32,000 bases of DNA from Candidatus Peribacter riflensis. Its GTDB lineage: Bacteria > Patescibacteriota > Gracilibacteria > Peribacterales > Peribacteraceae. The notes beneath the pieces are model-generated. The model made no database searches and had not been told where the DNA came from. It saw nothing but the letters and a program-made list of their open reading frames with translations. Positions 1-19,175 of the stretch are shown here, one piece after another (the stretch's first letter is position 1; each line of letters begins with the position of its first letter). Made by a program: the position numbers and the translations under genes. The stretch is taken from the NCBI GenBank assembly GCA_001430755.1, contig CP013062.1, positions 240,001 to 272,000 of the forward strand. Reading direction: 5' to 3'.

Positions 1-1356
1 ATCCCACCGCGATCCGGTGCTGATTTTTTCCTGCTCCCGGGCGAGCATGTTTCTTTTCGAAAATCCCAGACAGCCCTTCCGCTCGATAACAGCGGCGAGC
101 GCGTGAGCCTCATGAGCGGCTCTATGCTCATCGATGCGTTTGCGTATCCTCTGACGGCGGAAGAAGTGAGCTTCGGACGCGATCCCAATCCTCCCTTTGC
201 GCTTCATGCATTCTGCGTCCCAAGCGAAGGAAGAAAGAATGTCAGCGAGCCGCTCGCTCCGCGCATCATCATCCAGGATGCCGGTGCAGCCACAGTCGGC
301 AGCGCGTTCGTCGTCGGCGAAGGGCATGTCACGCTCAACCTGCAGGCCGCACTGGGAGCGGGTTCCCTCGCTTCCGCAGCATGCGTGTGGGATTTCGGCG
401 ATGACGCGGTGAGCAGCGCGTGTAACCCGTCATCGCACACGTTTTCCGATCCCGGCGACTATGCCGTGCGCCTCACGGTGCGCGATTTCTGCGGCGGGAT
501 CTCGGTGAGTACGCTTGATGTGACTGTGCTGCCAGAAGAGGAATCCGTCGTGCACTCTTCTGTTTCTTCTGCATCCTCGATTTCATCGGTTTCCTCTCTT
601 TCCTTTAGTTCCTCTATTTCCTCTATTTCTTCGCTTCCCTTTATCCGTGTAGAAACCGGAGTCATCTTGAGTGAAGTGCAGATGATGGGTGATGAATGGA
701 TCGAACTCTGGAATCCGACCGACCACGAAATTTCTCTCGGAGGCTGGATGCTCGATGACCTCCGTGAAGGCGGGCTTGCCCACCGTAGCTCGAAGAGCGG
801 AGGCGGGAGTAAGCCATGGAAGCTTCCTGTGGATTCCAGAATCCGAGCAGGGGAGTATCTGATTTTTTCCAGAAATGAAACCAAACTCCAGCTCAATGAT
901 TCGGGCGATGACGTGTGGCTCATCGCTCCCGATGGTTCCTGGTCGGATCACGTCACGATTCCGAAGCTGAAGTCGGGCATATCGTTCAGTTTCTGCGATG
1001 GGGAATGGAGAAGTTCCGACCCCACTCCGGAGTTACCGAATGCTTGTCAGACAACGGTGTCGTCACCTGCCCCATCTATTGCAGTCACAAAGAAATCCAT
1101 CGTCGCGACCACGCCCGCATTTTCGCGAACGCGCTACGTCGTGGCTTCTCAATCCTCTATTTCTTCTATTTCCTTTTCATCCTTTCAATCCGGTTCGTTC
1201 CTCATGTCCTACGCGCTGTCTGAACTCCCAGCCACCCTTACCGCCGCAGGCCCTGTTGCAGAACAGTCCTCCGTCCCCGAAGTGGGCGCGCTGGGGGCGC
1301 TTTCGGGGCTTGGGATTGCCCTGATGTGGTTTGGTCGCAAATGGTGGGGGCTTTGA
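1..1356 (+). CDS. Cell-surface protein, 5' end outside the window: lamin-tail (LTD) domains, one PKD domain, poly-Ser linkers, C-terminal membrane anchor
   Basis: Frame 1 has no stop from nt 1, so the GTG at 103 in the ORF track is not the true start. nt 1-150 encode ...LPLDNSGERVSLMSGSMLIDAFAY, the typical end of an LTD. PKD-like signature: WDFGDD...HTFSDPGDYAVRLTVRD. Second LTD signature: ILSEVQMMGDEWIELWNPTDHEISLGGWMLDD...LQLNDSGDDVWLIAPDG. There are two poly-Ser tracts. The C-terminus is VPEVGALGALSGLGIALMWFGRKWWGL (motif + TM helix + basic tail). Confidence 0.8.
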   Translation: MPPRSGADFFLLPGEHVSFRKSQTALPLDNSGERVSLMSGSMLIDAFAYPLTAEEVSFGRDPNPPFALHAFCVPSEGRKNVSEPLAPRIIIQDAGAATVGSAFVVGEGHVTLNLQAALGAGSLASAACVWDFGDDAVSSACNPSSHTFSDPGDYAVRLTVRDFCGGISVSTLDVTVLPEEESVVHSSVSSASSISSVSSLSFSSSISSISSLPFIRVETGVILSEVQMMGDEWIELWNPTDHEISLGGWMLDDLREGGLAHRSSKSGGGSKPWKLPVDSRIRAGEYLIFSRNETKLQLNDSGDDVWLIAPDGSWSDHVTIPKLKSGISFSFCDGEWRSSDPTPELPNACQTTVSSPAPSIAVTKKSIVATTPAFSRTRYVVASQSSISSISFSSFQSGSFLMSYALSELPATLTAAGPVAEQSSVPEVGALGALSGLGIALMWFGRKWWGL

Positions 1357-1417: not shown

Positions 1418-1726
1418 ATGGCAAAGACCCGCACGATTGGCGTCCGCTCCCTCCGGGCGAATATGCAGAAGATCCTCAACGAGGCACGGAGGGACAATGT
1501 CCACTTCGTCATCATGCGCTTCGGCGAGCCGGTGGCTCATTTAGTCCCCGTAAAACCGCGAAGGAAGCGGACAATGGAGCAACTGGAAGCGGATATCGCC
1601 GAGGCCCGGAGGCAGATCGCGAGAGGCGAGTGGTACACGACCGAGGAGGTCCGGCAGATGCTCGGACTCCCAGCATCAAAATATCGTCGTCAGCGCATCA
1701 AGACCTCGCGCAGTTACCGCCAATGA
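1418..1726 (+). CDS. Type II antitoxin, Phd/YefM family
   Basis: The internal ATG at 1418 gives MAKTRTIGVRSLRANMQKILNEARRDNVHFVIMRFGEPVAHLVPV, the typical Phd/YefM N-terminal fold pattern. Its stop TGA (1724-1726) overlaps ATG 1723 of the downstream toxin frame (ATGA). The upstream part of the track ORF (from TTG 1331) overlaps the previous gene and the promoter. Confidence 0.75.
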   Translation: MAKTRTIGVRSLRANMQKILNEARRDNVHFVIMRFGEPVAHLVPVKPRRKRTMEQLEADIAEARRQIARGEWYTTEEVRQMLGLPASKYRRQRIKTSRSYRQ

Positions 1727-1929
1727 TCGCTGCGCGCATCCTCGACAAGATGGAGTGGTATGCCGCCCATGTCGATCCGCTGCACTTTGCCAAACCGTTG
1801 CAAGGCAGCCGTCGGGGTTTATTTCGGTTCCGTGTGGGTGATTATCGCATCCTCGTGGATGTGAAGGGCCGTATGCACGTCATCGAAGTCTTTGCCGTCC
1901 GCCACCGCAGAGAGGCCTATCAGTCATAG
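1630..1929 (+). CDS. Type II toxin, RelE/ParE superfamily (start uncertain: GTG 1630 or ATG 1723)
   Basis: The C-terminal part GLFRFRVGDYRILVDVKGRMHVIEVFAVRHRREAY matches the RelE/ParE beta-sheet core (R.RvGdYRiiy...i.i..v.hR..aY). The family's N-terminal strand/helix pattern (IKISSSAHQDLAQLPP..IAARILDKM) lies upstream of the only ATG (1723). The nearest in-frame canonical start is GTG 1630. Confidence 0.65.
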   Translation: MVHDRGGPADARTPSIKISSSAHQDLAQLPPMIAARILDKMEWYAAHVDPLHFAKPLQGSRRGLFRFRVGDYRILVDVKGRMHVIEVFAVRHRREAYQS

Positions 1930-1972: not shown

Positions 1973-2001
1973 TTGAGAGAAAAGGCGATTTTTGGTACAA
2001 T
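1973..2001 (+). promoter_or_regulatory. sigma70-type extended -10 promoter TTGAGA-N17-(TGg)TACAAT for the 1876-aa gene
   Basis: TTGAGA at 1973-1978, TG at 1993-1994, TACAAT at 1996-2001. The ATG at 2013 is only 11 nt after the hexamer, so the predicted leader is about 5 nt. No Shine-Dalgarno motif. Confidence 0.5.
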
Positions 2002-2012
2002 AGTGAGATTTT

Positions 2013-5000
2013 ATGACACAAAAACTCTTTCCGTATTTCGGGTCTGAGGGCCTGCGCGAAGCGCGACTGATTTTTATGTCTTCCGAGAAGCCGAGTGAGC
2101 GCAGCGGCGAGGCCATGCGCGAGAATCTGGAGAAGCTCGGTCCGCGCTATGCCGAGGTCATCAAGCAGCTCCATGACGCTGCCAGCTATGCCGGTGATGC
2201 GAATCTGGCGAAGCTTCTGGAGGATCCCGAAACGCAGCAGATGATCGCCGCACAGGTGGAGCTTCCCCCGGGGGAGCTCACGAAGAAATGGCTCAACGAA
2301 ATCGCCTTGGTCTTCCTCAGAAAAGCGCATGAGGCCTTCAAGAGCGAAGACAGTGAAGTGCGCGGCTGGAAGGACAAAACGACGGACCAGGCCAAGAAGT
2401 GCGCCGAGATCTTCCGCACGACCCTGAGCGAAATCGATGCTGCGAAGAAGACGTACGGCGAGGAGCTGCCGGGCTTCGGCGGCGACGAGGGCAAGGCACT
2501 CTTGGAGCTCATGCGCCGGGGAGCCGATCAGCCCAAACTCAAAGAGAAATTCGACAAGCTGCTGGATCTGCAGAAAGAGATGCTCTGGGCGGACGAAACT
2601 GCACTGGGCAAGACCGCGCATTGGAAGGCCAGGCTCACGACAGTCGGCGTCGCCGATGCCGCTCTTGCTCCTCTCGATGCGACGGTCGATCCCACGGCCC
2701 GCCGAAAGCTCCTGCTGGAGCTCGTGCGCAGTGCCGCAGGCGTGCTGGAATCAAAAGACCAGAAGATCGTAGGCGACGCGATCGGCAAGATCGATGAAGC
2801 GCTGACGCGGGTGGATGACGAGAGAAAGGAACATTTGATGCGGCGCTTTCCCGAGCGCCTGAAGTACCTCTACCGCCTCGGCGGTTCCGACATGGATGCG
2901 GTGCTCGAGAATGCGGTGGCGCGGGATGGCATGTTCTCCTTCGATATCTTCGAGACGAACCTGCGCGAGCTCATGGGGGTGAAACTGGAGCCGAAGAACC
3001 GCACGGATCTTCTGCGCACTCTCGGTCTGGCGAGTGATAAAGAGCGCAAGGTGGTCACGGAAGACGCCATCAAAAAAGCCGCGGAGTACCTGCGTGCAAC
3101 CCTGAAGCTCAATAATCCCACGGGCATCTCGCTCTCGGCGCTCGCCCTGCGTGCGCGACTGCCCGAGGCGGCCGCGAATGAACTGGCGGAATCAAAACTG
3201 CAGATCGGTCTCGGAACACTCATCGAGATGGCGCAGAAAATTAATGCGCTTGCGGTTGGTCCTGTGAGTGATCCTGTCGAGAAATACCTGGAATCTGTTC
3301 TGCTCGATTCCAAGCAAATCAATGGAAAGGATCGCAAGGTGCTGAAGGACAAGGCCAGGTTCATGGAGATGGTCGGGTTCCTGCTCTACGGCGACGGCGC
3401 CAATCCTCTCGAGAGGGGCGCCAAGGCGGCACAGGCAGCCGAAAAATTCTGGAAGGACACCATCGGGGATCCGGGACTCGTCGAGACCATTGACGGCACG
3501 GGGGTGGTGAAAGAAGGCAAAGAGCCGGCTGTGACCAATGCAATCAAGACGCTGCAGGTGACGGTCAAGGCGAGCGAGTGGCACACGGCCATGCGCGATG
3601 GCGGCGTGCACGAGCTCACGTGGAAAGACACTGCGAAGCAGTATGCGAGCGCGCTCGGAACAACTGTCGCCGCAGCGGCGCCCATCTGGTGGGACTACAT
3701 CAAATCCATTCCCCGCAATTTCTGGGATAGTGAGGGTGATCCTGCCCTCCGCACGATCCTCGATCGCCGCAAGGGTCTTGAGCAAGGCAAGGCCGCTCTC
3801 GGGTCGCTGCTCACCACCTCCAACGGGGCCAAAGATCTGCTGCAGAGGTCCGAAGTCGGACTCGGGCACCTCAAGGCCGCACAGGAGCAGGCGATCAAAG
3901 GGGATGCGGTCACCTCGCCCAGAGACAACATCGAGCAGGCCCGGGCGCTGCTCATGGCCAACCAGTATGTCATCGGACAATTGAATGTCCTCGGCTGGAA
4001 TATGCGCTCAAAGAGACTCCGCCAATTGACGCTCTGGATGTCCATGTTCAAGGGAACCACGAAAGATCCCGAAGCGGGCCTGAAAGCGGCAAAGCAACTG
4101 CTGCAGGCTTCTGCGGCTCTGGTGACGCCCGAGGCACAGGACACATTTGTGGATGAGCAGATGGCGAAGATGAACGCGACGGACAAGCAGGCATTCCTGG
4201 GCTACACCGATGCGCGTGCCCTGGTCGAGAATCAGGAGGGCCGCGACATTACGGCGCCCTTGAAGCAGCGCGGTCTCACCTTAAAGCCCCGCGCTTTAGA
4301 CCTCCTCCGCCAGACAAAAGATCCGGCGAATCCCGCACTCAATCTGGCGGCGAACGTGGGCCGCTGGCTCATGGATCCGCCCGACAGAGTCAGCGCTTCG
4401 CTCCTCATCGTGTTGCAGGATTCCCCCGCGAAGGCGGCGTTCATCACGGCGTTCATCACAGGCGCGGAACAGACCTACACCCATCAGGGTCGCGAAGAGA
4501 AAGTCACGGTGGCCGATGCCCGCATGGCGGTGGATGTGCTGCAGCAACGCCTCCTCTTCGAGATGCGCGGCTCGATCAAGGCCCGCGAGCAGATTGAGGA
4601 TGAAGACGAATTCACAAATCCCGTCGACCGATGGCTGCGCACTGGTATCGAATCCATGAAGGAACTGTGGAATACCGATATGGTGGGCAAGGCCGAGGTC
4701 ATTGCCATTCTCTTTGCCGCCTACTGGATGATTAAGGAGGCGTGGAAGAGCAAGAAGGGCAAGTTTGTCCTCCTCGGTCTCCCGGTTCTGCTCGGCGCGA
4801 ATGCGATCATCAAGCAGCGCACGGGCCGCGATCTCATGGGTGAGAACCTGCGCTTTAAGAATAAGGAGGACCGTGCCTCTCCGCTCGAGGCCTTCCGCCG
4901 ACGCGGCGCGGCCTTAGACAAGCGCTATGCCGTACTCATGCAGCCCTCGGGGCAGGCGGCGATCCGCGCCCTCATGAATGAGAAGAATCCCGTGAGCGTT

Positions 5001-7643
5001 GCAGAGCTCCTCGACTGGCGCAATGCCGTGAAGTCCGGCGGCGGCAAGAAGTTCTCGGTCGGAAAGCCCGCATCACTCCAGATCACCGATATCGCAGATA
5101 ATCTTGGTACAATAGATTCCACAGAAAAGCCGTATGAGATTGCATATCTCGCTTTCGAAGCCCTGTGCGCGGATGTCGCGCGCATCAACGGGCTCACCGG
5201 AGGCAATACCGATACCAATGCCGAGCAGGGCGCGGACCTCATCCGGCAGCGCTACGTCATGAAGCGTTCCGCAGGGCTGCAGCCTGCCACGATGTTCGAG
5301 GTGATCATGTCGGAGTGCCAGATGCCCACGAAAGAGATGCTCGAGAACCGCAGTTACCTCGAGGCCGTCGCCGACCTGTTCGGTTACACCTACGATGAAG
5401 CTGCGGCGCTCGTGAAGAAGTACGGCGTGCAGGCGTGGGTGATGATGAAGCAGGGGGTGCATAAGGTGCCGGAGATTGCGGGGGCGGCAGTCGATTACGC
5501 AGGAGCCGGATGGGATGGTTTCAAGAACTGGGCGGCACTTACCTGGGCCAAAGGGAAGCCGGAGATGACAGAAAGTATTTCTGCGCTGTGGAGGTTCCTC
5601 AGTACCACAACGGTGGCAGGGGGGATGACCCTCGTGAGCGTGACGCCCGATGCGGCCTCGTGGGTGATCGACAAATCTATCTTCGTCGCAAACGGGGGAA
5701 AAGATATCGCCCTTGCCACCTACCGCACACTGCTCAGGAATGGGGTCACGGGGCCAATACTTGATTCCTTTATCAAGGAGTTGAAGTCGGTCACCGGCTG
5801 GGATATCGATGCCTCTTGGAAGACTCCCGAACACAAAGAAAAGCTTTCGGATCTCGGCACTTTCATTGAAGAGCTCTCAAAACAGGTGAGCTCAGTCGCA
5901 GAATTACCGCCCAATCATGAGGTGTATTTCAAAGATCTGCTCAAGAGCATCAAGGGTTTTGTCATAGATGGCGGTCCCGAGAAAACGCAGGACCGTCTTC
6001 TCACGTACGAGCTTGCACGGAGACAGGTTTTCTCTTTCCTCGCCGCCGAACGTATTCGCGCAATCAAGTCGCTCAAGGGGAAGCCGGCAAAAGATCTTCA
6101 TCTCACGCTTCCGCTAAGGCCATCCTGGACTGCCGATGCAAAGCAGTTCCACACAGAAAATTCGAAGGATCTTATCTATCCCTATTTTTATGACAACTAC
6201 AGTCTTTCCGTGATGCTTTCGGCGCTCGGTAATCAGCAAACGTTCGTCGGACTGATGAAGCTCTTTGTCGAAAAGAGGCCCGATCTGATTCGAAGTCAGG
6301 TCTTCGATTGGCTTCTCTGGCCGGGAATCCACGAGTACGTCACGCGTGATGAAGCGGGGGCATTCCTGCTCAAGCAGATGGAATCCTATATCGGGAATCT
6401 GCTCATGGACGCGGAGAAGACCCTTAAGCCGGATGAATTCAAGCGTTACAAGGCGTACGTCTCGACGCTCATGACAAATGTCATGGCTGAGATGATCTTG
6501 GATACCGATGCTGACAAAAAGCCCGTTGATCTGAAGCTGCTCAAGGGTCAGGCAAAGGAGTTTTACCGGCAGTTGCTTATGCGGCGCGGGACACTCGATT
6601 CGCATACGGATATGGCGAGGGCAAACCTCGAACTCTACGAACAGTTTGCACAGCCTGCAGTGCCGGGTAAGCCTCAGCTCGACGAACCTGTCGATCTTCT
6701 GGAGGTGGCGAATGATAAGGATCTTCGCTGGATTCTGCTTGGCGAGGCACCGCCGGAATCGGCTCCGGCTGCACCTGCGGCTCCTGGTGCGCCTCCTGCA
6801 GCGCCGACGCGGATGCCCACCACTGATGTGGATCGTCTGCGCAGTCAGCTGGATACAAAAATCGGGAGTCCGGCTGGCCGTAAGGAACTTCTCGCAGCGC
6901 TCAACAGGCCGGGTATTGGTGCCCTGGAGGGGGAAATTCGTGCGAAATTCGATGCACTGCCAGTGCTGGCGAATCCGGATATGGGTGCCAAACCGGAAGA
7001 TGTTGAGCAATTTGTCACGGGGTTGCTCGGTAAGACCGCGCCCAAGGCAGAGGCCATAGGAAAGAAATATCTCGATGATTTAATAGAGAACAGGGGCATG
7101 ACAGAGGATCAACGGATGCAGTTTGCGGATTGGTTCGCCAATGAAATTGCATCCAAGCGATCCGAGTATCCCGGGCATCCCCGCTTTCAGCGTTTCCTTG
7201 ATCAGGGAGCAGCTGCTCTGCTCTCTCAAACGGCGGAGGCACTCAGTAAGATTCCGCGGGCCACACTTCTTTCAGATCCACGGATCAAGGCCACGTACGA
7301 GCACACGCTTCTCGCTCTCTATCAGATGACGGCGGAGGGCAAGGATCATGTGCTTTCGGATGATGCCTCTCGATTACTTGAGTATGTGCTCTTTGGCGGC
7401 GAGAAAGGGAAGTATCAGGAGTATGTGAATTATCTGACGGCGCATGGCAGGCTCGCGCCTCCTTCCCTGCTCACGGGCGGCGGCCGGAGAATGCGTAATC
7501 CCGGAACGTGGTTCTCGCCTTACGCGACAGATGCCGAAATGCGTCTTTCACTGGGGGCTTCTATGAGTGCATCGACCATTGCATCGATTGCAAACAATTT
7601 CATCCAACCGCACCACACAGATGCAAAAGCAGTCCCGTGGTAA
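2013..7643 (+). CDS. Giant (1876 aa) orphan protein, mostly helical/charged, with a central bilobed hydrophobic hairpin and a Pro/Ala linker
   Basis: Uninterrupted 5.6-kb ORF with an ATG start behind a promoter-like site. No signal peptide, Walker A, HExxH or GxSxG recognised. Hydrophobic hairpin VIAILFAAYWMI-KEAWKSKKGK-FVLLGLPVLLGANAII at aa 896-933 (nt 4698-4811). Linker APPESAPAAPAAPGAPPAAP at about nt 6750-6810. Confidence 0.85.
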   Translation: MTQKLFPYFGSEGLREARLIFMSSEKPSERSGEAMRENLEKLGPRYAEVIKQLHDAASYAGDANLAKLLEDPETQQMIAAQVELPPGELTKKWLNEIALVFLRKAHEAFKSEDSEVRGWKDKTTDQAKKCAEIFRTTLSEIDAAKKTYGEELPGFGGDEGKALLELMRRGADQPKLKEKFDKLLDLQKEMLWADETALGKTAHWKARLTTVGVADAALAPLDATVDPTARRKLLLELVRSAAGVLESKDQKIVGDAIGKIDEALTRVDDERKEHLMRRFPERLKYLYRLGGSDMDAVLENAVARDGMFSFDIFETNLRELMGVKLEPKNRTDLLRTLGLASDKERKVVTEDAIKKAAEYLRATLKLNNPTGISLSALALRARLPEAAANELAESKLQIGLGTLIEMAQKINALAVGPVSDPVEKYLESVLLDSKQINGKDRKVLKDKARFMEMVGFLLYGDGANPLERGAKAAQAAEKFWKDTIGDPGLVETIDGTGVVKEGKEPAVTNAIKTLQVTVKASEWHTAMRDGGVHELTWKDTAKQYASALGTTVAAAAPIWWDYIKSIPRNFWDSEGDPALRTILDRRKGLEQGKAALGSLLTTSNGAKDLLQRSEVGLGHLKAAQEQAIKGDAVTSPRDNIEQARALLMANQYVIGQLNVLGWNMRSKRLRQLTLWMSMFKGTTKDPEAGLKAAKQLLQASAALVTPEAQDTFVDEQMAKMNATDKQAFLGYTDARALVENQEGRDITAPLKQRGLTLKPRALDLLRQTKDPANPALNLAANVGRWLMDPPDRVSASLLIVLQDSPAKAAFITAFITGAEQTYTHQGREEKVTVADARMAVDVLQQRLLFEMRGSIKAREQIEDEDEFTNPVDRWLRTGIESMKELWNTDMVGKAEVIAILFAAYWMIKEAWKSKKGKFVLLGLPVLLGANAIIKQRTGRDLMGENLRFKNKEDRASPLEAFRRRGAALDKRYAVLMQPSGQAAIRALMNEKNPVSVAELLDWRNAVKSGGGKKFSVGKPASLQITDIADNLGTIDSTEKPYEIAYLAFEALCADVARINGLTGGNTDTNAEQGADLIRQRYVMKRSAGLQPATMFEVIMSECQMPTKEMLENRSYLEAVADLFGYTYDEAAALVKKYGVQAWVMMKQGVHKVPEIAGAAVDYAGAGWDGFKNWAALTWAKGKPEMTESISALWRFLSTTTVAGGMTLVSVTPDAASWVIDKSIFVANGGKDIALATYRTLLRNGVTGPILDSFIKELKSVTGWDIDASWKTPEHKEKLSDLGTFIEELSKQVSSVAELPPNHEVYFKDLLKSIKGFVIDGGPEKTQDRLLTYELARRQVFSFLAAERIRAIKSLKGKPAKDLHLTLPLRPSWTADAKQFHTENSKDLIYPYFYDNYSLSVMLSALGNQQTFVGLMKLFVEKRPDLIRSQVFDWLLWPGIHEYVTRDEAGAFLLKQMESYIGNLLMDAEKTLKPDEFKRYKAYVSTLMTNVMAEMILDTDADKKPVDLKLLKGQAKEFYRQLLMRRGTLDSHTDMARANLELYEQFAQPAVPGKPQLDEPVDLLEVANDKDLRWILLGEAPPESAPAAPAAPGAPPAAPTRMPTTDVDRLRSQLDTKIGSPAGRKELLAALNRPGIGALEGEIRAKFDALPVLANPDMGAKPEDVEQFVTGLLGKTAPKAEAIGKKYLDDLIENRGMTEDQRMQFADWFANEIASKRSEYPGHPRFQRFLDQGAAALLSQTAEALSKIPRATLLSDPRIKATYEHTLLALYQMTAEGKDHVLSDDASRLLEYVLFGGEKGKYQEYVNYLTAHGRLAPPSLLTGGGRRMRNPGTWFSPYATDAEMRLSLGASMSASTIASIANNFIQPHHTDAKAVPW

Positions 7644-7644
7644 A

Positions 7645-7675
7645 TTGACAAAAATCCATAATTGTTTATCATTAT
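7645..7675 (+). promoter_or_regulatory. Possible internal promoter TTGACA-N19-CATTAT in the AT-rich 37-nt gap before the 854-aa gene
   Basis: Perfect TTGACA at 7645-7650. The best -10 candidate is CATTAT at 7670-7675, with a long 19-nt spacer. The ATG at 7681 is 5 nt after the hexamer. The gap is much more AT-rich than its surroundings. Confidence 0.3.
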
Positions 7676-7680
7676 AAACC

Positions 7681-10245
7681 ATGCCCATCATCCCTCCAGA
7701 AGACAACGGCGATATCCCATCTGAGGACAAGGGTCAACCGAACCTGCCGCGTGGTGGTCTCAGTGATGTGCAGTGGCAAGAGTTTGAGGATTGGTTTTAC
7801 CATGGTGCGGATTTAAGATTAGATGGTCCTGAGGATCTCACTCCTGAAGAATTACAGAGAGAAATTTCTAAATTCCATGAAGAGAAACAGCATGGTGAAA
7901 CACCAAAGATGGGAGTATCCGAGAATATTGCAGGTCAACGTGAGGCAACTGGAAAAAAAGCACAGGACATAGCCGGTGAAGCTGCCGGAGAGGGCGGAAT
8001 ACAGTTTCTGATGTCTGACGGCAATCCCGCGGATCCTCCCCTCGTTGCTGAATATGTACGATGGAGAGATCAGAAATTCATCCCACCTCTTCCGGACGGG
8101 TGGACTCGGGATAATCAACAGAATTTGTTTCAGGAGTTTCTTGAGGAACGTTCATTGGGTGGTGCTGCCACTGAGCCCTGGAACAATACTGCGGGATCCG
8201 GAGAGCAGAGCAGACCGCAGGCACAACGTCCTGACACATTGGCGGAGCGACATGAAGGATATTATCAAGAACTTATGAGACTCCGTTCTCATGCGGAGCG
8301 CGTAGCAGGAATTGGTTTCTATCTTGATAGAGGTTTGATTACTGAAGACATAGCAGAGATTTTCCGTGATCGTTTGCGTCACGAACCGCAGGAAGCTGTG
8401 GCTGAAGCGGATGATTCGCGCAGCGAATCAGGTGATGGTTATGCTGTAGAAACTCCTGCAGCAGGAACGCCTGCGATTCTTGCTGCGGCGAAACAAAAAA
8501 AGCAGAAGAAGAGCTTATATCGTAGATATCGAGAAAGTCGCCAACGTTGGAAGCAGCTTGGGCATACCATTGACCATGGAGTGCGTGGTACCGTTACGGG
8601 TGGGGTTGTAGGAGGTATCACGGGTCTCACCGCATTGCAGGGATTCCAGAATCTTCTTGGGGTGGGAGGGGCAATGGGCAGCGGATTTGCGAACGTTGTC
8701 TGCATGGGGCTGCCGGCGGCTCCACTGCTATACCGGCCCGCTTGTTGGGTGTACGCAAAAAGGAAACACGAGGATATCAAAATCGCATATGATCAGTGCA
8801 CAAAAGATTCCCTGCACCTGGATGGTGTCCCATTAGAGGAGCATCAGCGAGTGTTCCAGCGCGAAATCAACCAACCGACCGTTGAATTGATCGATCAACC
8901 AGGAGAGCAAGAGTTCATCAAGGCGTTTCACATGGTCATACGCGATCGTCTCGCCAATATTCCCCATTTGTTAACCGAGGAACGGTATGCACAATACTGC
9001 TTCACGGTGATGGTGGAGGCGTGCAAAAATTCAGCTGCCAAAGAGGAGAATGCGCGGAACGGAGCGGAAAAGATTCTGGCGAACTATCACCCGTTTGATA
9101 CTGCGGGAAACCGATTACCCGATGCTGCAGAAAGAATTTTGCACATGCGGCAGATTTCCATCACATACGGCAAGATGCTCGCCGAACGTGAGCGCCAGGA
9201 GGGTGAGAGTCAGATCACGGGTGCCATTGTCGGCGCATCGATTGCGCTCCTCTTCACCTACGGACCCCTAGCTCCCATTATCGGTGGCATCGCATGGACC
9301 GGGCGGAGGCTGTGGTGCAGGCATAAGGAAGCGCAAGTGCACATTGAGGTGAATGAGCGAAATGAACTGGTAGGGAAGGAGGGTCAGCCGATTTATAACC
9401 CTACAACCTATCGTAGTGATGTGGTATCACTCTATCGAAACGGTGATTTTGTCACACAGGCGGAGGACGAGGCGAAGCGCAAAGAATGGCGTGAGGAGGA
9501 AGGGGTAAAGTCGTGGTTGAAATCTATCGTCATACCTGCGGAATCAGTACAGCGCTGCCGGACCGGCGCCATAAAGACGCCGCGCGGCTTGGCTCTGGAG
9601 ACCGCTCCGCGGGTACAGGAGCAACTGAAAAATCAGAGAATTGAACACCGGCCTCCAGTGAACACATCAAAAGTACGCGAAATTGAAATGCAAATTGAGG
9701 CGGAGACCGAGGACCTAAAGAATTTGCGTGCTCAGCGAAGCCCTTCAAAAGATGCGCTGGATCAGTGCGCAGCGAGACTGAAGGAACTGCGAAAAGCGCT
9801 CTCTGCAGAAAAGAACCCCAAACCACGATCTGGACCAGATGGAGTGATCCTCCCATTAACAATTGAAGAGATTGGAAAAAACGTTGATGCCGGTAAAGCC
9901 TTTGCCATTGCTGTTGTCGAAACCTTCCAGGCGAATGCCAAGCAGGGTTGGGTGCGCAAGAAGACTGGAGAGGCACTCGCTCCCGTTGGTTCTGCTTTTA
10001 AAGAAGCCGCGATTGACGTGGTAGTCAAGCCAGTCATCGTCGGGGGGTTGTCGGTTGGAGGTGTCTTTCTCGCCGGCAAACTCATAGGCGTGTTGGGGGG
10101 CATAACCGTCTCAACACCTGTCACTCTGACGATTGGCGGAGCGGTCGGAATTTATGCGCTTGTCCGAATGGCGGCATCTGCCATCAAGGATTTCAAATGG
10201 GGCAAAGGAGCCCATACAGAAAAGAAAGAACCGGATAAGAAATAA
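7681..10245 (+). CDS. 854-aa orphan membrane protein with three Gly-rich hydrophobic regions, an acidic N-terminus and a coiled-coil-like segment
   Basis: Long ORF with an ATG start. Hydrophobic, Gly-rich regions at aa 303-358 (nt 8587-8754), aa 512-541 (nt 9214-9303) and aa 779-833 (nt 10015-10179). No signal peptide and no recognisable enzymatic motif. Confidence 0.85.
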   Translation: MPIIPPEDNGDIPSEDKGQPNLPRGGLSDVQWQEFEDWFYHGADLRLDGPEDLTPEELQREISKFHEEKQHGETPKMGVSENIAGQREATGKKAQDIAGEAAGEGGIQFLMSDGNPADPPLVAEYVRWRDQKFIPPLPDGWTRDNQQNLFQEFLEERSLGGAATEPWNNTAGSGEQSRPQAQRPDTLAERHEGYYQELMRLRSHAERVAGIGFYLDRGLITEDIAEIFRDRLRHEPQEAVAEADDSRSESGDGYAVETPAAGTPAILAAAKQKKQKKSLYRRYRESRQRWKQLGHTIDHGVRGTVTGGVVGGITGLTALQGFQNLLGVGGAMGSGFANVVCMGLPAAPLLYRPACWVYAKRKHEDIKIAYDQCTKDSLHLDGVPLEEHQRVFQREINQPTVELIDQPGEQEFIKAFHMVIRDRLANIPHLLTEERYAQYCFTVMVEACKNSAAKEENARNGAEKILANYHPFDTAGNRLPDAAERILHMRQISITYGKMLAERERQEGESQITGAIVGASIALLFTYGPLAPIIGGIAWTGRRLWCRHKEAQVHIEVNERNELVGKEGQPIYNPTTYRSDVVSLYRNGDFVTQAEDEAKRKEWREEEGVKSWLKSIVIPAESVQRCRTGAIKTPRGLALETAPRVQEQLKNQRIEHRPPVNTSKVREIEMQIEAETEDLKNLRAQRSPSKDALDQCAARLKELRKALSAEKNPKPRSGPDGVILPLTIEEIGKNVDAGKAFAIAVVETFQANAKQGWVRKKTGEALAPVGSAFKEAAIDVVVKPVIVGGLSVGGVFLAGKLIGVLGGITVSTPVTLTIGGAVGIYALVRMAASAIKDFKWGKGAHTEKKEPDKK

Positions 10246-10253
10246 CCTATACA

Positions 10254-11216
10254 ATGATGAGCTTCCGTTTCATCCCATCTTCGGCTCTTCCCCTCCCGCA
10301 TCATCGTGCGGAAACCTCCACTGAGGCCGAACGGCGCCTGCTCTTCAAAGAAAAGACGCCCGAAGCCTCTGCGGAAGCACCGAAAGGAAAAGAAAAACCG
10401 AAGGAAGGTGGAGAGAAGCCCAAAGACGATAAGGGTGACTCTGTGGAAAAGAAGGTGGGTAAGGAGACCAAAGAAACAGGAAAAGCCGTCAAAGATGTCG
10501 TGCCCGAGGCAGATGCACCTCTGGTGCCAGAACCGCTCAAGCCGAAAGAAGGTCCGCAGTATGTTCAGTTGCCTTCCATCACTGAGGGGCTGAAGCAAAC
10601 GCGCAATGCAATCCTCACGGCAATCGGAATTGCTCTGCCTCCACTGGGAATCGCGGGATTGGCCGCAGGCGGGACTGCGCGGTATCTCAGCAGTAAGAGG
10701 ACAGATGCCCCTCTCAGCCTTGGTCGCGCGGTGAAAGACACTTTCGTCACTGCGCCGAAGGAAGGGGTCAAGAGCATTTTCAGGGCGCTGACGTATCCGT
10801 TCCGTCTAGGCGGAGCTGCCGGTATCAACACGCTCAAGTTCTCCGGAGACAAGCTCTATCGCGGACTCGATGCCACGGTGGGCGAGCTCTATCGCGATCT
10901 CAGGACTGCGATCAATCACAAATTCCAATTTCCCGAGGGGACCAATCTGCTTGCTGCAGTGATGCTCGGGATCAAGCGCACACTTCTGTTCCCCAAGGAT
11001 GCTGTGAGGTGGTATGCGGGCATGTGGAAAGCTCATCCCAAGACCACGCTTGCCGCCACCATCGCAATTCCGTGGATCACCATGCATGGAGCCTGGCCCG
11101 AGGTGATTGCATGGGGCAGGGATCTCTCGATCGGGATTCTGAATATCATTCAGGGCATCGCTGGCAAACTTGTCGCTCCCGGGGCGATTCCCCCTATTGT
11201 GCCTCCCATTCCATAA
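10254..11216 (+). CDS. 320-aa orphan membrane protein with a Lys/Glu/Pro-rich N-terminal region
   Basis: The ATG lies 8 nt after the previous stop. aa 30-100 are low-complexity KEKPKEGGEKPKDDK. There is a hydrophobic hairpin at aa 118-141 (AILTAIGIALPPLGIAGLAAGG) and further hydrophobic segments near the C-terminus. Confidence 0.8.
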   Translation: MMSFRFIPSSALPLPHHRAETSTEAERRLLFKEKTPEASAEAPKGKEKPKEGGEKPKDDKGDSVEKKVGKETKETGKAVKDVVPEADAPLVPEPLKPKEGPQYVQLPSITEGLKQTRNAILTAIGIALPPLGIAGLAAGGTARYLSSKRTDAPLSLGRAVKDTFVTAPKEGVKSIFRALTYPFRLGGAAGINTLKFSGDKLYRGLDATVGELYRDLRTAINHKFQFPEGTNLLAAVMLGIKRTLLFPKDAVRWYAGMWKAHPKTTLAATIAIPWITMHGAWPEVIAWGRDLSIGILNIIQGIAGKLVAPGAIPPIVPPIP

Positions 11217-11223
11217 TTTCTCC

Positions 11224-11529
11224 ATGTCTTTCAATCTATTCAACATCTTTCGGCCCCGTTCACCCGAAGAGGCGTCGAAAGCCGGAGTGAAAGTGGAGGC
11301 GCCGGGCTGGGCGGACTATGTGTCGCAGACCATCGGTGGCATCGGGTATGCAGCCAAGAACGCCTTGCGTGCGGTCGTCACCGCCCCCACGCACCTTGCG
11401 ATGGGCACGCTTGCACTGGGCAGGCGCAGCGTTGAAGGGACGCTCAGCGTTCTCACGAATCCCGTGTTCCGGCTCATCGATGGCTACCATACACGCATCG
11501 ACAAGCTGCTGGCGTTCGGGGGAAAGTGA
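11224..11529 (+). CDS. 101-aa orphan protein, last gene of the block
   Basis: The internal ATG at 11224 lies 7 nt after the previous stop; the track ORF start at 11170 would overlap the 320-aa gene. The N-terminus MSFNLFNIFRP resembles MMSFRFIPSS of the 320-aa protein. A VTAP...NPVFRL motif is shared with that protein. Confidence 0.6.
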   Translation: MSFNLFNIFRPRSPEEASKAGVKVEAPGWADYVSQTIGGIGYAAKNALRAVVTAPTHLAMGTLALGRRSVEGTLSVLTNPVFRLIDGYHTRIDKLLAFGGK

Positions 11530-11534
11530 GCGAG

Positions 11535-11552
11535 TTTCCTCGTGAGAGGAAA
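11535..11552 (+). terminator. Hairpin after the four-gene block (7-bp stem, GTGA loop), no U-tract
   Basis: TTTCCTC-gtga-GAGGAAA starts 6 nt after the stop at 11529. It is followed by gtacagg, not a T-run, so terminator function is doubtful. Confidence 0.25.
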
Positions 11553-11685: not shown

Positions 11686-12813
11686 ATGTCTCAACTCATT
11701 CTCCAAGATGGCTCAACATTCAAAGGTGAGTCATTTGGTGCACCAGTCGATACCGATGGTGAGGTGGTCTTCAACACGGGCATGGCTGGGTATGTCGAGA
11801 GCCTCACGGATCCCAGCTACGAGGGGCAGATCCTCGTCTTCACCTACCCGCTCATCGGCAATTACGGCGTACCCACCGAGGAGAAGAACGAGTACGGGTT
11901 TGCCTTAAACCTCGAGAGTGAGCGCATCCACGTGCGCGGTGTGATCATGGCACAGGGCAGCGAGGACTTCAGTCATCAGGCTGCGGCCAGCTCGCTTCGG
12001 CGGTGGCTGGAACATCACAAGATCCCTGCCATCACGGGGGTCGATACGCGGGCCCTGACGAAGAAGCTCCGCGAGCACGGTGTGATGCTGGGGAGGATTG
12101 TCCAGGGTGAAGAATTAGGAATAAAGAATAAAGAATTAAGCACGACGATTGAGGATCCCAATGAGCGGAATCTGGTTGCCGAGGTGAGCTGCAAGGAACC
12201 CGTGACCTATGAACCTCAAGAGAATGCGACCGGCAAGTCCGTCATCGTCTTCGACTGCGGCATCAAAAATAACATTCTCCGCAGTTTTCTCAGGAGGGGC
12301 ATCACCGTGCACCGCGTTCCGTGGAATTATGATCTCGCGTCTTCACCACTCACGTTCGACGGGGTCTTCATCAGTAACGGTCCCGGCGACCCCAAGAAGT
12401 GCGACGCGACGATCCGGCAGATCCAGTGGAGTATCGCAAAGAACCTGCCCACCTTCGGCATTTGCCTGGGCAATCAGCTCATGGCGCTTGCCATCGGCGG
12501 CGATACCTTCAAGCTCAAGTACGGCCATCGCGGGGTGAACCAGCCGTGCGTGGAATGGGAACTCGGGAACTCGGGAAATTGGGAACCCGGAAAGCGGTGC
12601 ATCATCACGTCGCAGAACCACGGCTTCGCGGTGAAGCCAGATGCGCTGCCCGCGGGCTGGCATATCTGGTTTACGAACGCGAATGACGGCACGGTGGAGG
12701 GGATAGCGCACGAATCGGGCAGGTTCTTCTCGGTGCAGTTTCATCCAGAAGCAACCCCGGGACCAGAAGACGCCAATTACCTGTTTGATGAGTTTGTGAA
12801 AGTGCTGGAATGA
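11686..12813 (+). CDS. carA: Carbamoyl-phosphate synthase small (glutamine amidotransferase) subunit
   Basis: The N-domain GEVVFNTGMAGYVESLTDPSYEGQILVFTYPLIGNYGVP is diagnostic. The GATase nucleophile elbow GICLGNQ and the FHPE motif are present. The length (375 aa) fits. No carB is adjacent. Confidence 0.95.
   Translation: MSQLILQDGSTFKGESFGAPVDTDGEVVFNTGMAGYVESLTDPSYEGQILVFTYPLIGNYGVPTEEKNEYGFALNLESERIHVRGVIMAQGSEDFSHQAAASSLRRWLEHHKIPAITGVDTRALTKKLREHGVMLGRIVQGEELGIKNKELSTTIEDPNERNLVAEVSCKEPVTYEPQENATGKSVIVFDCGIKNNILRSFLRRGITVHRVPWNYDLASSPLTFDGVFISNGPGDPKKCDATIRQIQWSIAKNLPTFGICLGNQLMALAIGGDTFKLKYGHRGVNQPCVEWELGNSGNWEPGKRCIITSQNHGFAVKPDALPAGWHIWFTNANDGTVEGIAHESGRFFSVQFHPEATPGPEDANYLFDEFVKVLE
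12557..12588 (+). repeat. In-frame G3N5 x4 tract inside carA (GGGAACTCGGGAACTCGGGAAATTGGGAACCC)
   Basis: Four GGG runs are separated by 5-nt loops on the sense strand. The tract encodes ELGNSGNWEP, about 9 aa more than E. coli CarA between the HP and ITAQNHG positions. Confidence 0.8.
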
Positions 12814-13707: not shown

Positions 13708-13784
13708 GCTCTGTCGAAGGGTGACGTTCCTGTCATGGTTCGATCCTTCGGCACCGCTCAGGACAGGCTCCGCTCACCATGACA
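13698..13784. repeat. Double-hairpin intergenic repeat, copy A
   Basis: Hairpin 1 is GTCACCC-tgagctctgtcgaa-GGGTGAC (13698-13725). The second arm pair is GTCATGG (13732-13738) and CCATGAC (13777-13783). It shares 18-, 12- and 13-nt identical blocks with 22763-22847. It overlaps the purN stop codon and the first ATG (13779) of the next ORF. Confidence 0.6.
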
Positions 13785-13802
13785 TGGCTTTCCTTACACA
13801 TC

Positions 13803-14522
13803 ATGCCCACTCCCACCTTCACCGCCCGCTGCACCAGCTATCGCAAGATCGCGCATGACGTGTACGAGTTCACGCTCGCAACCCCGCAGGGCTTCTCGTT
13901 TCAGGCGGGGCAGTTCGTGATGTTCCAGGTACCGCTCGTCGAGAGCAGATCCGATGTGCAGGGTCGCGCCTTCTCCATCGCCTCCGCGCCGAGCGAACCT
14001 GAGCTGCTCTTCGTCGCCAAGATCAAGCAGGGGGGCCGCGCGGGACGGTGGATTTCTGAGGTGCTCACGGTTGGGGATGACGTTTTGTTCCAGGGGCCGC
14101 TGGGGAACTTCACGCTTGCCCCGAAGGCACAGGAACAGCAGCTCCTCTTTCTGGCCACGTGTTCCGGTGTCGCGCCGTTGCGCTCCCACATCGTCGAGGC
14201 GCTCCACCAGGGCGACACGCGGCCGATGGATCTGGTCTTCTGCGTGCGGAAAGATGAAGACCTGTTCTGGGCCGATCAGCTTTCGGCGCTCGCGCAGGCA
14301 CATGCCAACCTCCACCTGCATCTCACGCTCAGCCAGCCGTCGTCTTCGTGGAAGGGGCACACCGGCCACGTGCAGGATGTTGCCGAAGAGGTCATCGGCA
14401 ATCTCGCCGAGCGCAGCATCTACGTGTGCGGCGGGCCGGAAATGGTCAAGGCCGTGCGGATCAGGGCGCTGGAGCAATGGAAAATCCCGAAGGAGCGGGT
14501 GCACTCGGAGGATTACGTGTAG
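13803..14522 (+). CDS. FAD/NAD(P)H-binding oxidoreductase, Fre/ferredoxin-NADP reductase family
   Basis: Family motifs present: RAFSIAS (RxYS flavin-binding), GPLG, ATCSGVAP (GxGxxP-type NAD(P)H site) and YVCGGPEM. Overall colinear with E. coli Fre. The start is placed at ATG 13803 because ATG 13779 lies inside the intergenic repeat. Confidence 0.85.
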   Translation: MPTPTFTARCTSYRKIAHDVYEFTLATPQGFSFQAGQFVMFQVPLVESRSDVQGRAFSIASAPSEPELLFVAKIKQGGRAGRWISEVLTVGDDVLFQGPLGNFTLAPKAQEQQLLFLATCSGVAPLRSHIVEALHQGDTRPMDLVFCVRKDEDLFWADQLSALAQAHANLHLHLTLSQPSSSWKGHTGHVQDVAEEVIGNLAERSIYVCGGPEMVKAVRIRALEQWKIPKERVHSEDYV

Positions 14523-15548: not shown

Positions 15549-15553
15549 TCCAA
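15526..15553 (-). promoter_or_regulatory. Divergent promoter TTGGAA-N16-TACAAT on the minus strand, its -10 box overlapping the plus-strand -10 box
   Basis: The minus-strand TACAAT is the complement of 15526-15531, and TTGGAA is the complement of 15548-15553. Together with the plus-strand box this reads ATTGTATAAT. Confidence 0.35.
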
Positions 15554-17238: not shown

Positions 17239-17961
17239 TCACCAGAGCAGCGTGCTGCCTTCCTGCACCAGGATGATATCCCGCTCCACGGTATCTTTCT
17301 CCAGATCCACGCGCGTCAGCCGTACCTCTGCAGAGACACCGGAAGGATTGTGCAGCAGGATGGTGGCGGGCGGGGTGAGGTCGAATGAGACGATCGCGCC
17401 GGGCGGCAGGTGGTAACGTGTGAAGCCGAACGTCGGGGGATCCATGGTGACGGCCGCGAAGGGCACGCCGCCCACTTCGCGCTTCGACCAGGAGGAGGGC
17501 ACGCTCACGGCAATCGTTTCGAGGGCGTCATGGCGCATGTCTGCCACGCCCTTCGCGCCATTCGTGGTGAGTGACAGAGCGAGGGAGACAGGCTTCTGGT
17601 GCTCCAGCCCGATTTCGGATCGCTCGCCCGTCGTCACCTGCGCCGTGAGGGTGGGTGCATCGCCGCGCAGGGCTCCCTGCGAAACGGCAACGACGGCCAC
17701 GATGGCGGTGAGGGCGGCCACAGCGTGGAGGGCGAAGCCCCGCGTGGGTGTCGTGAGGGATGGCAGGACGGGGGCCGGTGCCAGTGCAGCAGGAGCGGGC
17801 GTCGCAGTGAGTTTCTTTCCGCGGGGCGCACGATGAACCCGCACAACGGCGTCCTGTGCGGACTGTTCTTCGTGGCGCGAAATCCGTTGCGGGCGGGGCA
17901 CGGAATGGAAGTGTAGCGCCTCTGTCTTCGCGTGTGAAATCGCCTCTTTGGCACTGGTCAT
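17239..17961 (-). CDS. 240-aa single-pass membrane protein (cytoplasmic basic N-terminus, one TM helix, beta-rich exterior domain)
   Basis: ATG start at 17961. TM helix FALHAVAALTAIVAVVAVS at about aa 76-94. Its stop is 6 nt from the stop of the convergent 559-aa gene. No recognisable domain. Confidence 0.75.
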   Translation of the reverse strand: MTSAKEAISHAKTEALHFHSVPRPQRISRHEEQSAQDAVVRVHRAPRGKKLTATPAPAALAPAPVLPSLTTPTRGFALHAVAALTAIVAVVAVSQGALRGDAPTLTAQVTTGERSEIGLEHQKPVSLALSLTTNGAKGVADMRHDALETIAVSVPSSWSKREVGGVPFAAVTMDPPTFGFTRYHLPPGAIVSFDLTPPATILLHNPSGVSAEVRLTRVDLEKDTVERDIILVQEGSTLLW

Positions 17962-18854: not shown

Positions 18855-19175
18855 ATGAACCACCAAACCTTCTCTCAAGAACTGGAGAAACTCACTGCCC
18901 TTCCCGAAGAGCAGGTTGCCCGGGCGAAGGAGGCTTCGCAGGGTCTGAATGAGGCTGATCGCGCGGAGTTTTTGAAGCAGCTCACCGCCTCCGACCAGGA
19001 GCTTGCGGGTGTCTTGCAGCAGCAGAACGATGCAGCGGAGGCATTTGCCGTCGCGCTCACCGACGCCGAGAAACAGATGAACCGCGTCGAACGCTCCTCG
19101 GTGGAATCTGCGGAGAAGCGAGAGGAGATCAAAGAGGCCGAACAAGGCATTTCTGATCTTCCCGCCGCCGCATGA
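18855..19175 (+). CDS. 106-aa acidic helical protein, translationally coupled to the 1141-aa gene
   Basis: ATG start behind a strong promoter-like site. Its stop TGA (19173-19175) overlaps ATG 19172 (ATGA). The composition is Glu/Ala/Gln-rich with no hydrophobic segment. Confidence 0.65.
   Translation: MNHQTFSQELEKLTALPEEQVARAKEASQGLNEADRAEFLKQLTASDQELAGVLQQQNDAAEAFAVALTDAEKQMNRVERSSVESAEKREEIKEAEQGISDLPAAA

Follow-up and report, generated by a model that had tools for sequence, protein, structure and literature searches.

An orphan gene cluster beside carA in Peregrinibacteria suggests an undescribed membrane-associated apparatus

A stretch of 32,000 nucleotides in the genome of the groundwater bacterium Candidatus Peribacter riflensis (contig CP013062.1, positions 240,001 to 272,000 of the forward strand; hereafter the window) carries four consecutive same-strand genes, here named g1 to g4, whose products are without detectable relatives of known function. 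They belong to a cluster that is confined, as far as it has been found, to the Peregrinibacteria, where it is vertically inherited, and that suggests an undescribed membrane-associated apparatus. The giant protein g1 is a mosaic in which a conserved core lies between recombining arms; its C-terminal third and the genes behind it have been exchanged together; and g1, g3 and further cluster proteins share an N-terminal tag, nearly confined to the cluster, which a low-complexity linker follows.

The four open reading frames have the lengths, the intergenic gaps (37, 8 and 7 nucleotides) and the share of the window (30%) given in a preliminary description of this DNA, and the cluster takes up about 10 kb of a genome of ~1.2 Mb. 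The sequences are already public but uncharacterised: in the genome paper all four genes are annotated "hypothetical protein" and left undiscussed (PMC4736985). Because orthologues are present in at least 16 contigs and the ratios of nonsynonymous to synonymous substitution (dN/dS) lie below 1, g1 to g4 are evidently real genes under purifying selection. Measured against L016, the closest locus fetched, dN/dS is 0.27 for g1, 0.25 for g2, 0.15 for g3 and 0.60 for g4, with 0.08 for the neighbouring carA; these values are rough because dS is near saturation in this comparison.

Library, PDB-profile and fold searches place none of the four proteins, in agreement with the preliminary description, which had recognised no known domain or catalytic signature in them. 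In Pfam, NCBIfam, PHROGs and PADLOC there are zero matches for g1, g3 and g4 and only sub-threshold matches for g2, among them REase_II at E=0.0097. Twelve relatives of g3 gave nothing below E=0.039 against Pfam, the precomputed Pfam annotation is empty for all homologues of all four proteins (about twelve genomes), and profile searches with four alignments against all PDB sequences returned no match. An AlphaFold model of g1 residues 600-1799, made with 32 diverse sequences, is almost wholly helical at a predicted local distance difference test score (pLDDT) of 76.9; an earlier run on the g1 core with nine sequences was poor (61.8). Foldseek comparison of the better model with PDB and BFVD gave none at E<=1e-3, the non-significant top matches being generic helical repeats and tape measure proteins. 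With hhalign no mutual homology was found among g2, g3 and g4, nor internal repeats among the four segments of g1, and an Rfam search over the whole window returned no RNA family.

Regular-expression scans of g1 to g4 found no Walker A, HExxH or lipobox motif, as had been stated, and the sole match to GxSxG is GLSVG, within a hydrophobic stretch of g2. The N-termini of all four proteins are polar and free of any hydrophobic signal region, which bears out the earlier statement that they have no signal peptide. A catalytic site was also sought in the g1 core: the conserved residues include Asp, Glu and one Cys (C1052, in mid-helix) but no conserved His, and no active site is recognisable. The second protein, g2, may bear some resemblance to BAR/IMD domains of membrane curvature, to which two independent weak hints point, each below threshold: a match to Pfam BAR at E=0.0049, which scores 17 bits where the cut-off is 28.5 (residues ~635-710 of g2, window 9583-9810), and a score of 19.9 bits against a threshold of 55.8 for BAIAP2/IRSp53 in the published annotation with KEGG hidden Markov models (HMMs). 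Coiled-coil similarity alone is a possible source of both.

The distribution of g1 was mapped with an exhaustive HMMER search, in which a g1-core profile was run against 1.84 billion representatives. It found 67 clusters of g1 relatives, 58 of them at E<=1e-30; the representatives are nearly all 1,600-2,340 residues long (up to 2,338) with the core in the middle, and the relatives align over their whole length at 22-80% identity. A word-indexed search gave 14 relatives, of which all the named ones are Peregrinibacteria, Peribacter or Peribacteraceae, and one further named relative from the exhaustive search is a Candidatus Peribacteria. Seven loci, six of them from Peregrinibacteria, came from a scan of 185,579 species genomes. 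The seventh (L010:9999-10721) is a piece of 723 bp, 100% identical to window 5029-5751 within g1, with which a contig assigned to an Omnitrophica bin (RIFOXYB12_FULL_50_7) ends. The remainder of that contig has no match to the window, and the likely cause is chimeric assembly or wrong binning of the contig end. A narrower-pattern scan of metagenomes added only five loci, and 2.9 million viral contigs hold no relative.

Gene order was inspected in about 12 contexts and is the same in each. The gene rny, on the opposite strand, is followed by a gene for a surface protein with LTD and PKD domains (LTD/PKD), sometimes by small variable genes, and then by the giant gene; beyond it come an optional gene for a protein of ~850-1,330 residues, one of ~270-320 residues, one of ~100-130 residues, sometimes further orphans, and carA. 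In iterated HMM searches the g3 family was united in all 12 loci tested, B-type variants included (types A and B are defined below), and the g4 family was found in 10; the g2 family is present in five of the 12 and also in L016, and L022 has an analogue of the same design. Homologues of the four genes do co-occur elsewhere, g1, g3 and g4 in every sufficiently long locus. On both points that the preliminary description had named as refuting it, placement in well-characterised families and failure to co-occur, the outcome is in its favour. As a four-gene unit, the block of the preliminary description needs amendment: the genes occur together, but g2, present in about half of the loci, is optional, further orphan genes occur elsewhere (at least seven before carA in one genome), and the LTD/PKD gene is always adjacent upstream. 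Two layouts are seen, namely type A, which is g1-g2-g3-g4, and type B, in which g1 is followed by a divergent g3, one or two opposite-strand genes and then g4. The opposite-strand genes of type B (L003:16605-17687 on the minus strand; L011:17066-19778 on the minus strand, between g3 and g4) encode proteins with an N-terminal membrane helix, a K/E-rich coiled coil and a hydrophobic hairpin, and the L011 pair are paralogues. Within 10 kb, none of the contexts contains an ATPase, protease or known secretion gene.

The division of g1 into a core and two arms emerges from sliding comparisons. Against P0004 the identity is 18-40% over residues 100-600 and 76-96% over residues 1100-1876; against P0003 the N-terminal end has 70-78% and residues 1600-1876 have 26-33%. 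The core, at residues ~650-1150, shows 55-96% identity to all Peribacteraceae, and its motifs LLxWR, AFEALCxDVA, AExGA..I...YV and TMxDV are kept across the family. At the DNA level the window and L016 are ~81% identical over 3935-7954 and 8854-11167, the same level as carA, with no alignment over 2079-3934 or over g4. Only three Cys are found in g1, all of them conserved; the Peribacter genome average for Cys is 1.67%, and the exported proteins of the organism are very Cys-rich (PMC4736985).

The C arm follows the gene set rather than the core. Between types A and B the C arms have a normalised BLAST score of 0-2, while core similarity interleaves the two types, so that P0008 (type A) and P0010 (type B), for example, score 87; B-type C arms score 12-39 with one another even where the cores of the genomes concerned score only 13-26. 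The simplest reading of this joint exchange is that the C arm and the products of the downstream genes work together physically. The N arm has alleles of its own, independent of C type, and no co-variation was seen of N-arm type or g4 subtype with the LTD protein, C-arm type or g3 type. Among the partners, g2 evolves fast, with 21-28% identity where g1 has 40-49%, and g4 is 31% identical to its L016 copy, where g1 to g3 are 68-73% identical. The g4 protein exists as two divergent subtypes, ~31% identical to each other (that of the window against L016:10070-10423, L004 and L007), the distribution of which follows neither g1 core, arm types nor g3 type.

The tag was delimited by a scan of the window and 14 loci in six frames, in which the initial 60 residues of every open reading frame of at least 100 residues were compared with E-x-R-L-[ILVC]-[FY]. 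The motif matched 17 of 777 reading frames, and 16 of the 17 lie inside the cluster. These 16 come from five unrelated families: nine are g1 orthologues, four are g3 proteins, and three are other cluster proteins from distant genomes, mutually unrelated, of 510, 1,110 and 976 residues. The single match outside lies N-terminally in a protein, probably FtsW-like, encoded on L010, the contig labelled Omnitrophica. The motif occurs anywhere in the scanned frames at 9.3e-5 per residue, and by a rough estimate the chance that four independent non-g1 families would carry it N-terminally is about 1e-7. In the g1 family the protein starts with MTQKLFPYFGSEGLREARLIF in the window and MKFKHTYTFWTKRFSLRERRLCF in a distant relative; 22 of the 67 representatives have the strict motif and 36 a relaxed one. 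In g3 of the window the tag is EAERRLLFKEKTPEA, at residues 24-38. A tag (MQHLFSHSAFTLKEKRLLFVE) also lies in an upstream extension of the 976-residue gene as called (L014:23353-23445, equal to L022 ~13765-13857), an extension that abuts the preceding gene; because it carries the tag, the start of this gene was probably called too far downstream, by 31 codons. The tag-related LFNIFRPRSPEE opens the g4 protein, and TSPEAEP opens B-type g3. A second motif, [ST]PE[AE], has 13 matches in the N-termini against about 9 expected, concentrated in g3 and g4, and its statistics are weak because the g3 and g4 matches are orthologues.

When the sequences are aligned on the R-L pair, the motif stands 17-24 residues from Met, His and aromatic residues precede it, and a Pro/Glu/Lys-rich stretch with no hydrophobic region follows. 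Because this charged linker takes the place of a hydrophobic region, the tag is, as judged from its sequence, neither a Sec nor a Tat signal, despite the resemblance of E-R-R-L-L-F-K to the Tat motif. The resemblance to S/T-R-R-x-F-L-K comes from the E-R-R-L-[IL]-F-K that stands close to the N-terminus of g3 and of several cluster proteins; but only the second Arg of the tag is conserved, where a Tat signal has an invariant twin arginine, the first position being variable (E-A-R-L in g1, H-R or K-R in others), and A-x-A is absent along with the hydrophobic region.

Membrane hairpins had been proposed for all four proteins. They are plausible for g2 and g3, where residues 512-541 and 776-833 of g2 and 118-139 of g3 have transmembrane-like Kyte-Doolittle values of 1.8-2.0 (1.95-2.0 for 776-833 and for g3) and score as high as the C-terminal anchor of the LTD/PKD protein in a crude biological-hydrophobicity sum. 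In g1 the segment at residues 896-933 is marginal and not canonical, with a maximum of 1.51 and hydrophobic runs of only 14-16 residues, and in g4 no scanned segment rises above 1.5. The g1 hairpin is nevertheless among the best-conserved parts of the family, with G-[LIV]-P, an Asn or Asp, and K..TG.D; the AlphaFold model has helices at residues 890-912 and 914-937. Averaged over 32 diverse relatives, the upstream flank carries a net charge of -1.4, the loop one of +2.5 and the downstream flank one of +2.4. The segment probably serves as an interfacial or monotopic anchor in the membrane, unless the hairpin is buried.

The g2 protein consists of an acidic N-terminal region (isoelectric point, pI, 4.5), hydrophobic Gly/Ala-rich segments at residues 304-351, 510-541 and 776-835, and a coiled-coil stretch; residues 268-303, just before the first Gly-rich segment, carry a net charge of +10, and a basic tail follows the last. 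In g3 the N-terminal tag is followed by a K/E/P-rich linker, the one hydrophobic segment (22 residues with a central Pro-Pro, basic on both sides) and a basic C-terminal half; the corresponding segment of B-type g3 relatives is not transmembrane-like. The g4 protein is small and basic (pI 10) and has no transmembrane-like segment or hairpin. Because the hydrophobic runs are short, have a central Pro or Gly and are basic on both flanks, their composition would fit hairpins dipping into one face of the membrane better than full spans.

The extended -10 promoter attributed to the block is present before g1, and the element TTGAnn-17-TGGTACAAT-agtnGGATTTT-ATG is kept in 14 loci, distant ones included; it implies a leader of about 4-5 nucleotides. 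A second promoter precedes g2, where TTGACA-16/17-TAT(C/A)AT followed by 7-9 nucleotides and ATG is kept in all eight type A loci examined, and the copy in the window matches 11 of 12 consensus positions. Because only 7-9 nucleotides separate the -10 box from the ATG, the g2 mRNA is predicted to be leaderless. Type B loci have no promoter between g1 and g3. A scan with the consensus promoter found four sites against 4.8 expected by chance, and two of the four lie directly before g1 and g2. There is no Shine-Dalgarno-like sequence before g2, g3 or g4. The block ends, as described, at a hairpin, which has no T-run directly after it and was not called by the terminator scan.

The LTD/PKD gene adjoins the giant gene on the same strand in every context, with a gap of 47-115 nucleotides where nothing is inserted. 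Both domains were identified by Pfam in the protein of the window, and its relatives begin with a signal peptide and end in 'PE[VM]G + hydrophobic helix + basic tail'. This surface protein is a possible partner of the cluster, to which synteny alone links it. Its C-terminus in the window is ...SSVPEVGALGALSGLGIALMWFGRKWWGL, an end type seen also in L001, L003 and L011-L015 that resembles PEP-CTERM-type sorting signals; the L014 orthologue has an SNase nuclease domain in addition. The toxin-antitoxin pair upstream and carA downstream flank the block as the preliminary description stated. The pair adjoins the block but does not mark a boundary of the system: it has been inserted, at a spot that varies. 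Other genomes show the interval between the LTD gene and g1 to be a hot spot of insertion by small genes, toxin-antitoxin and HNH genes among them, and the Pfam ParE match reaches ~16 codons upstream of the ATG of the toxin gene.

Features of the window are collected in the table. Window coordinates are used throughout; the published genome coordinate is the window coordinate + 240,086 (PMC4736985, supplementary file 2). The block agrees base for base with that complete genome, Candidatus Peribacter riflensis RIFOXYC2_FULL_PER-ii_58_32, in which the window spans about 240,087-272,086. Genes of the window correspond to published genes _231 to _238 and beyond. Published _236 starts at the second ATG of g3 (10257-11216), and _235 was called short in the publication, at 524 residues, where the Glimmer call gives 854.

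Table. Genes, protein regions and transcription signals of the cluster and its flanks, in window coordinates
Feature	Coordinates	Strand	Description
LTD/PKD surface protein gene, 3' part	1..1356	+	published gene _231, 755 aa; 5' end lies before the window
Phd-like antitoxin	1418-1726		upstream flank of the block
RelE/ParE-like toxin, short	1723-1929		68 aa; overlaps antitoxin gene by 4 nt in a different frame
g1 promoter	1973..2001	+	TTGAGA-17-TGgTACAAT, extended -10; 11 nt before ATG
g1	2013-7643	+	1876 aa; published gene _234 (242,099-247,729); giant all-alpha orphan protein
g1 N-terminal tag	2013..2090	+	aa 1-26, MTQKLFPYFGSEGLREARLIFMSSEK; core motif E-x-R-L-[ILVC]-[FY]
g1 variable N arm	2310..3812	+	aa ~100-600; divergent alleles
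g1 conserved core	3960..5462	+	aa ~650-1150; densest invariant columns
g1 hydrophobic helical hairpin	4680..4823	+	aa 890-937; basic loop and downstream flank
g1 variable C arm	5610..7640	+	aa ~1200-1876; allelic type co-varies with downstream gene set
g2 promoter	7645..7672	+	TTGACA, 16 nt, TATCAT, 8 nt to ATG; 11/12 consensus positions
g2	7681-10245	+	854 aa; published gene _235 (247,767-250,331 in Glimmer call)
g3	10254-11216	+	320 aa; published gene _236
g4	11224-11529	+	101 aa; published gene _237
hairpin after g4	11533..11550	+	TTTCCTC-GTGA-GAGGAAA; 7-bp stem, GTGA loop
carA	11686-12813		downstream flank; published gene _238

Elsewhere in the window, a coiled-coil-rich orphan of 1,141 residues with no Pfam match (19172-22597, plus strand) lies directly upstream of rpoC, where rpoB would be expected, and large orphan genes stand at the same position before rpoC in L003 (1,182 residues) and L022 (1,032 residues). 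Two further reading frames, 15553-17232 on the plus strand (559 residues) and 17239-17961 on the minus strand (240 residues), have no Pfam match; the former overlaps an F420-ligase-like gene on the other strand and may be spurious.

The account favoured here, held tentatively, is that the cluster encodes a non-enzymatic, tag-assembled multiprotein scaffold, which hairpins would anchor to the cell's own membrane from the cytoplasmic side. The four proteins would be synthesised without a Sec or Tat signal, and the common tag would gather the cluster proteins at one site, where short helical hairpins, hydrophobic but with a Pro or Gly kink and basic flanks, would push into the bilayer from its cytoplasmic face. 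As the central scaffold or hub, g1 would bind the matching g2/g3 set through its C arm, and g4 would be a small basic accessory. The assembly would probably sit beneath the adjacent LTD/PKD surface protein and serve the cell envelope or contact with other cells. A scaffold is favoured because of the orphan status of the proteins, the synteny, the lack of an export signal or machinery, the unit formed by C arm and partners, and the shared tag; the make-up seems scaffold-like because it is all-helical, with coiled coils, K/E/P-rich linkers and the weak BAR/IMD matches of g2, and has no conserved His or catalytic-looking motif. Topology on the cytoplasmic side is favoured because the g2 and g3 segments have basic flanks, the g1 hairpin has a basic loop and flank, and the runs are too short or polar for spans.

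Several observations weigh against this scaffold. Membrane association itself is read from composition, and the confidence of the AlphaFold model is low exactly at the g1 hairpin (pLDDT 54-63). The LTD/PKD protein is tied to the cluster by its position, and a conserved promoter of its own stands before g1. Allelic mosaicism by segments and quickly evolving partners are more usual in proteins exposed to other organisms than in internal scaffolds, and a conserved N-terminal tag on unrelated proteins is typical also of substrates of a dedicated export route. The proposal in the preliminary description, a membrane-embedded scaffold or proteins inserted into their own or a partner cell's membrane, is still plausible, and the shared tag and the mosaic evolution lend it indirect support.

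The main rival account, possible though we think it unlikely, is that the proteins are instead exported and insert into the membrane of a partner cell, in the manner of translocons or effectors, with the tag as the signal of a route that is neither Sec nor Tat. Short Gly/Ala-rich hairpins would keep them soluble until they entered a host or prey membrane, and the variable arms and partners would track hosts. The fixed distance of the tag from Met on five unrelated cluster families suits such a signal, as the marginal hydrophobicity suits a soluble-to-inserted switch; the allele-like arms of g1, the fast evolution of g2, the two g4 subtypes and the constant adjacency of a surface adhesin-like LTD/PKD gene point the same way. 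Peribacter is, moreover, a predicted symbiont (PMC4736985), and Vampirococcus lugosii, of the neighbouring Absconditabacteria, is an epibiotic predator with giant membrane proteins (PMC8080830). However, the inspected contexts hold no export machinery in or near the cluster, and apart from Sec, type II secretion and type IV pili the genome paper lists none (PMC4736985). The proteins are also very large, up to 2,338 residues; the cluster is single-copy, keeps a fixed place in the core genome and has a very conserved core, where effectors usually vary in presence and position; and the basic flanks fit insertion from the cytoplasm of the producer equally well. A more specific form of this idea, which should be regarded as speculative and rather improbable, is that the tag (M..H..F......E-x-R-L-Φ-F with its Pro/Glu-rich linker) is the signal of an undescribed targeting or export route of Peregrinibacteria that delivers giant hairpin proteins to the host contact zone or membrane, with the g1 arms and partners setting host specificity.

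The replacement of the C-terminal third of g1 and the following genes as a cassette, incongruent with the core phylogeny, recalls a polymorphic-toxin-like conflict system in which g1 would be the delivery part with an exchangeable toxic C-terminus and the downstream membrane proteins would give immunity. Such a system is quite improbable here: no member has a known toxin, immunity or delivery domain, the C-arm types are few, each of ~600 helical residues on which purifying selection acts (some stretches share 94-96% identity with P0004), orphan cassette arrays are absent, the N arm recombines too, which the model does not predict, and the location is core-genome in every genome. Tape measure proteins combine long helices with Gly-rich hydrophobic segments, and they top the Foldseek list against viral models (E=5.7e-3, TM-score 0.07), which might suggest that g1 is tape-measure-like and the cluster a prophage or phage-tail remnant with membrane-active accessory proteins. 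Fold scores at that level are meaningless, however, and with no PHROG match, no relative on viral contigs, no phage genes in the vicinity (which holds housekeeping genes such as rny, carA and purN) and a rny-carA position that is constant across the whole lineage, a phage origin is very hard to credit. Hardest of all to credit are spurious or decaying functionless reading frames, for which only the lack of annotation speaks, against full-length conservation at 22-80% identity over 67 clusters, dN/dS of 0.15-0.6 and conserved promoters. The remaining probability belongs to an explanation outside all of these.

Bacteria that belong to the candidate phyla radiation form a large share of bacterial diversity, a good part of their genomes is "hypothetical", and their attachment to and exploitation of other cells are little understood. 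The cluster is kept across its lineage next to core genes and offers testable handles: a short tag that unrelated proteins have in common, exchangeable arms around a conserved core, the match between C arm and partners, and a conserved hairpin. If the tag is a docking or export signal, it would define a new targeting system whose clients can be listed by sequence, and if the arms track hosts, the locus could be used as a host-range marker. Should the host-directed tag route hold true, it would represent a new kind of apparatus for cell-to-cell interaction in these bacteria.

Several known systems can be compared with the cluster. Polymorphic toxins such as CdiA, Rhs and LXG are likewise large proteins with a conserved part and an exchangeable C-terminus inherited with downstream genes; in contrast to them, the cluster lacks toxin, immunity and delivery domains, has few cassette types and a varying N arm, and is most conserved at the centre of g1. 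The cargo peptides of bacterial microcompartments offer a parallel to the tag, as short terminal peptides with flexible linkers on unrelated cluster proteins that bring them to a common structure, although the motif differs, the cluster has no shell proteins, and its products look membrane-associated rather than like luminal enzymes. Chlamydial Inc proteins and the type III translocators (IpaB/YopB and IpaC/YopD, with a small chaperone) resemble the cluster proteins in being otherwise soluble and coiled-coil-rich with a two-lobed hydrophobic hairpin, in having no Sec signal, and in belonging to clustered, fast-evolving orphan families. Residues 304-351 and 776-835 of g2 may correspond to the two-lobed hydrophobic domain (40-60 residues) of these proteins, which g1 and g3 fit only loosely. 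Unlike the cluster proteins, however, these are substrates of the type III injectisome, far smaller, and without a conserved N-terminal motif or a fixed core-genome position; no type III secretion system lies within 10 kb in any context, and we know of no type III injectisome in Peregrinibacteria.

The pore domain of colicins, the T domain of diphtheria toxin and the Bcl-2 family are, like g1, all-helical with one central Gly/Ala-rich hairpin of marginal hydrophobicity; g1 differs in having no fold match to them, in the conserved polar residues and basic flanks of its hairpin, and in being ~10x larger. A last parallel is the cytoskeleton of the Mycoplasma attachment organelle, with HMW1, HMW2 and HMW3 and the P1 adhesin operon. 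The HMW proteins are not known to have hydrophobic hairpins, a shared N-terminal tag or segmental allele exchange; there is no sequence or fold similarity to the cluster, and Peribacter, unlike Mycoplasma, has a cell wall. In both cases, though, a bacterium with a reduced genome has lineage-specific orphan proteins, one of them helical and of ~1,800 residues, with low-complexity regions that are acidic or rich in proline; a surface adhesin is encoded alongside, and the non-enzymatic sub-membrane scaffold that the HMW proteins form is of the kind proposed here for g1 and its partners.

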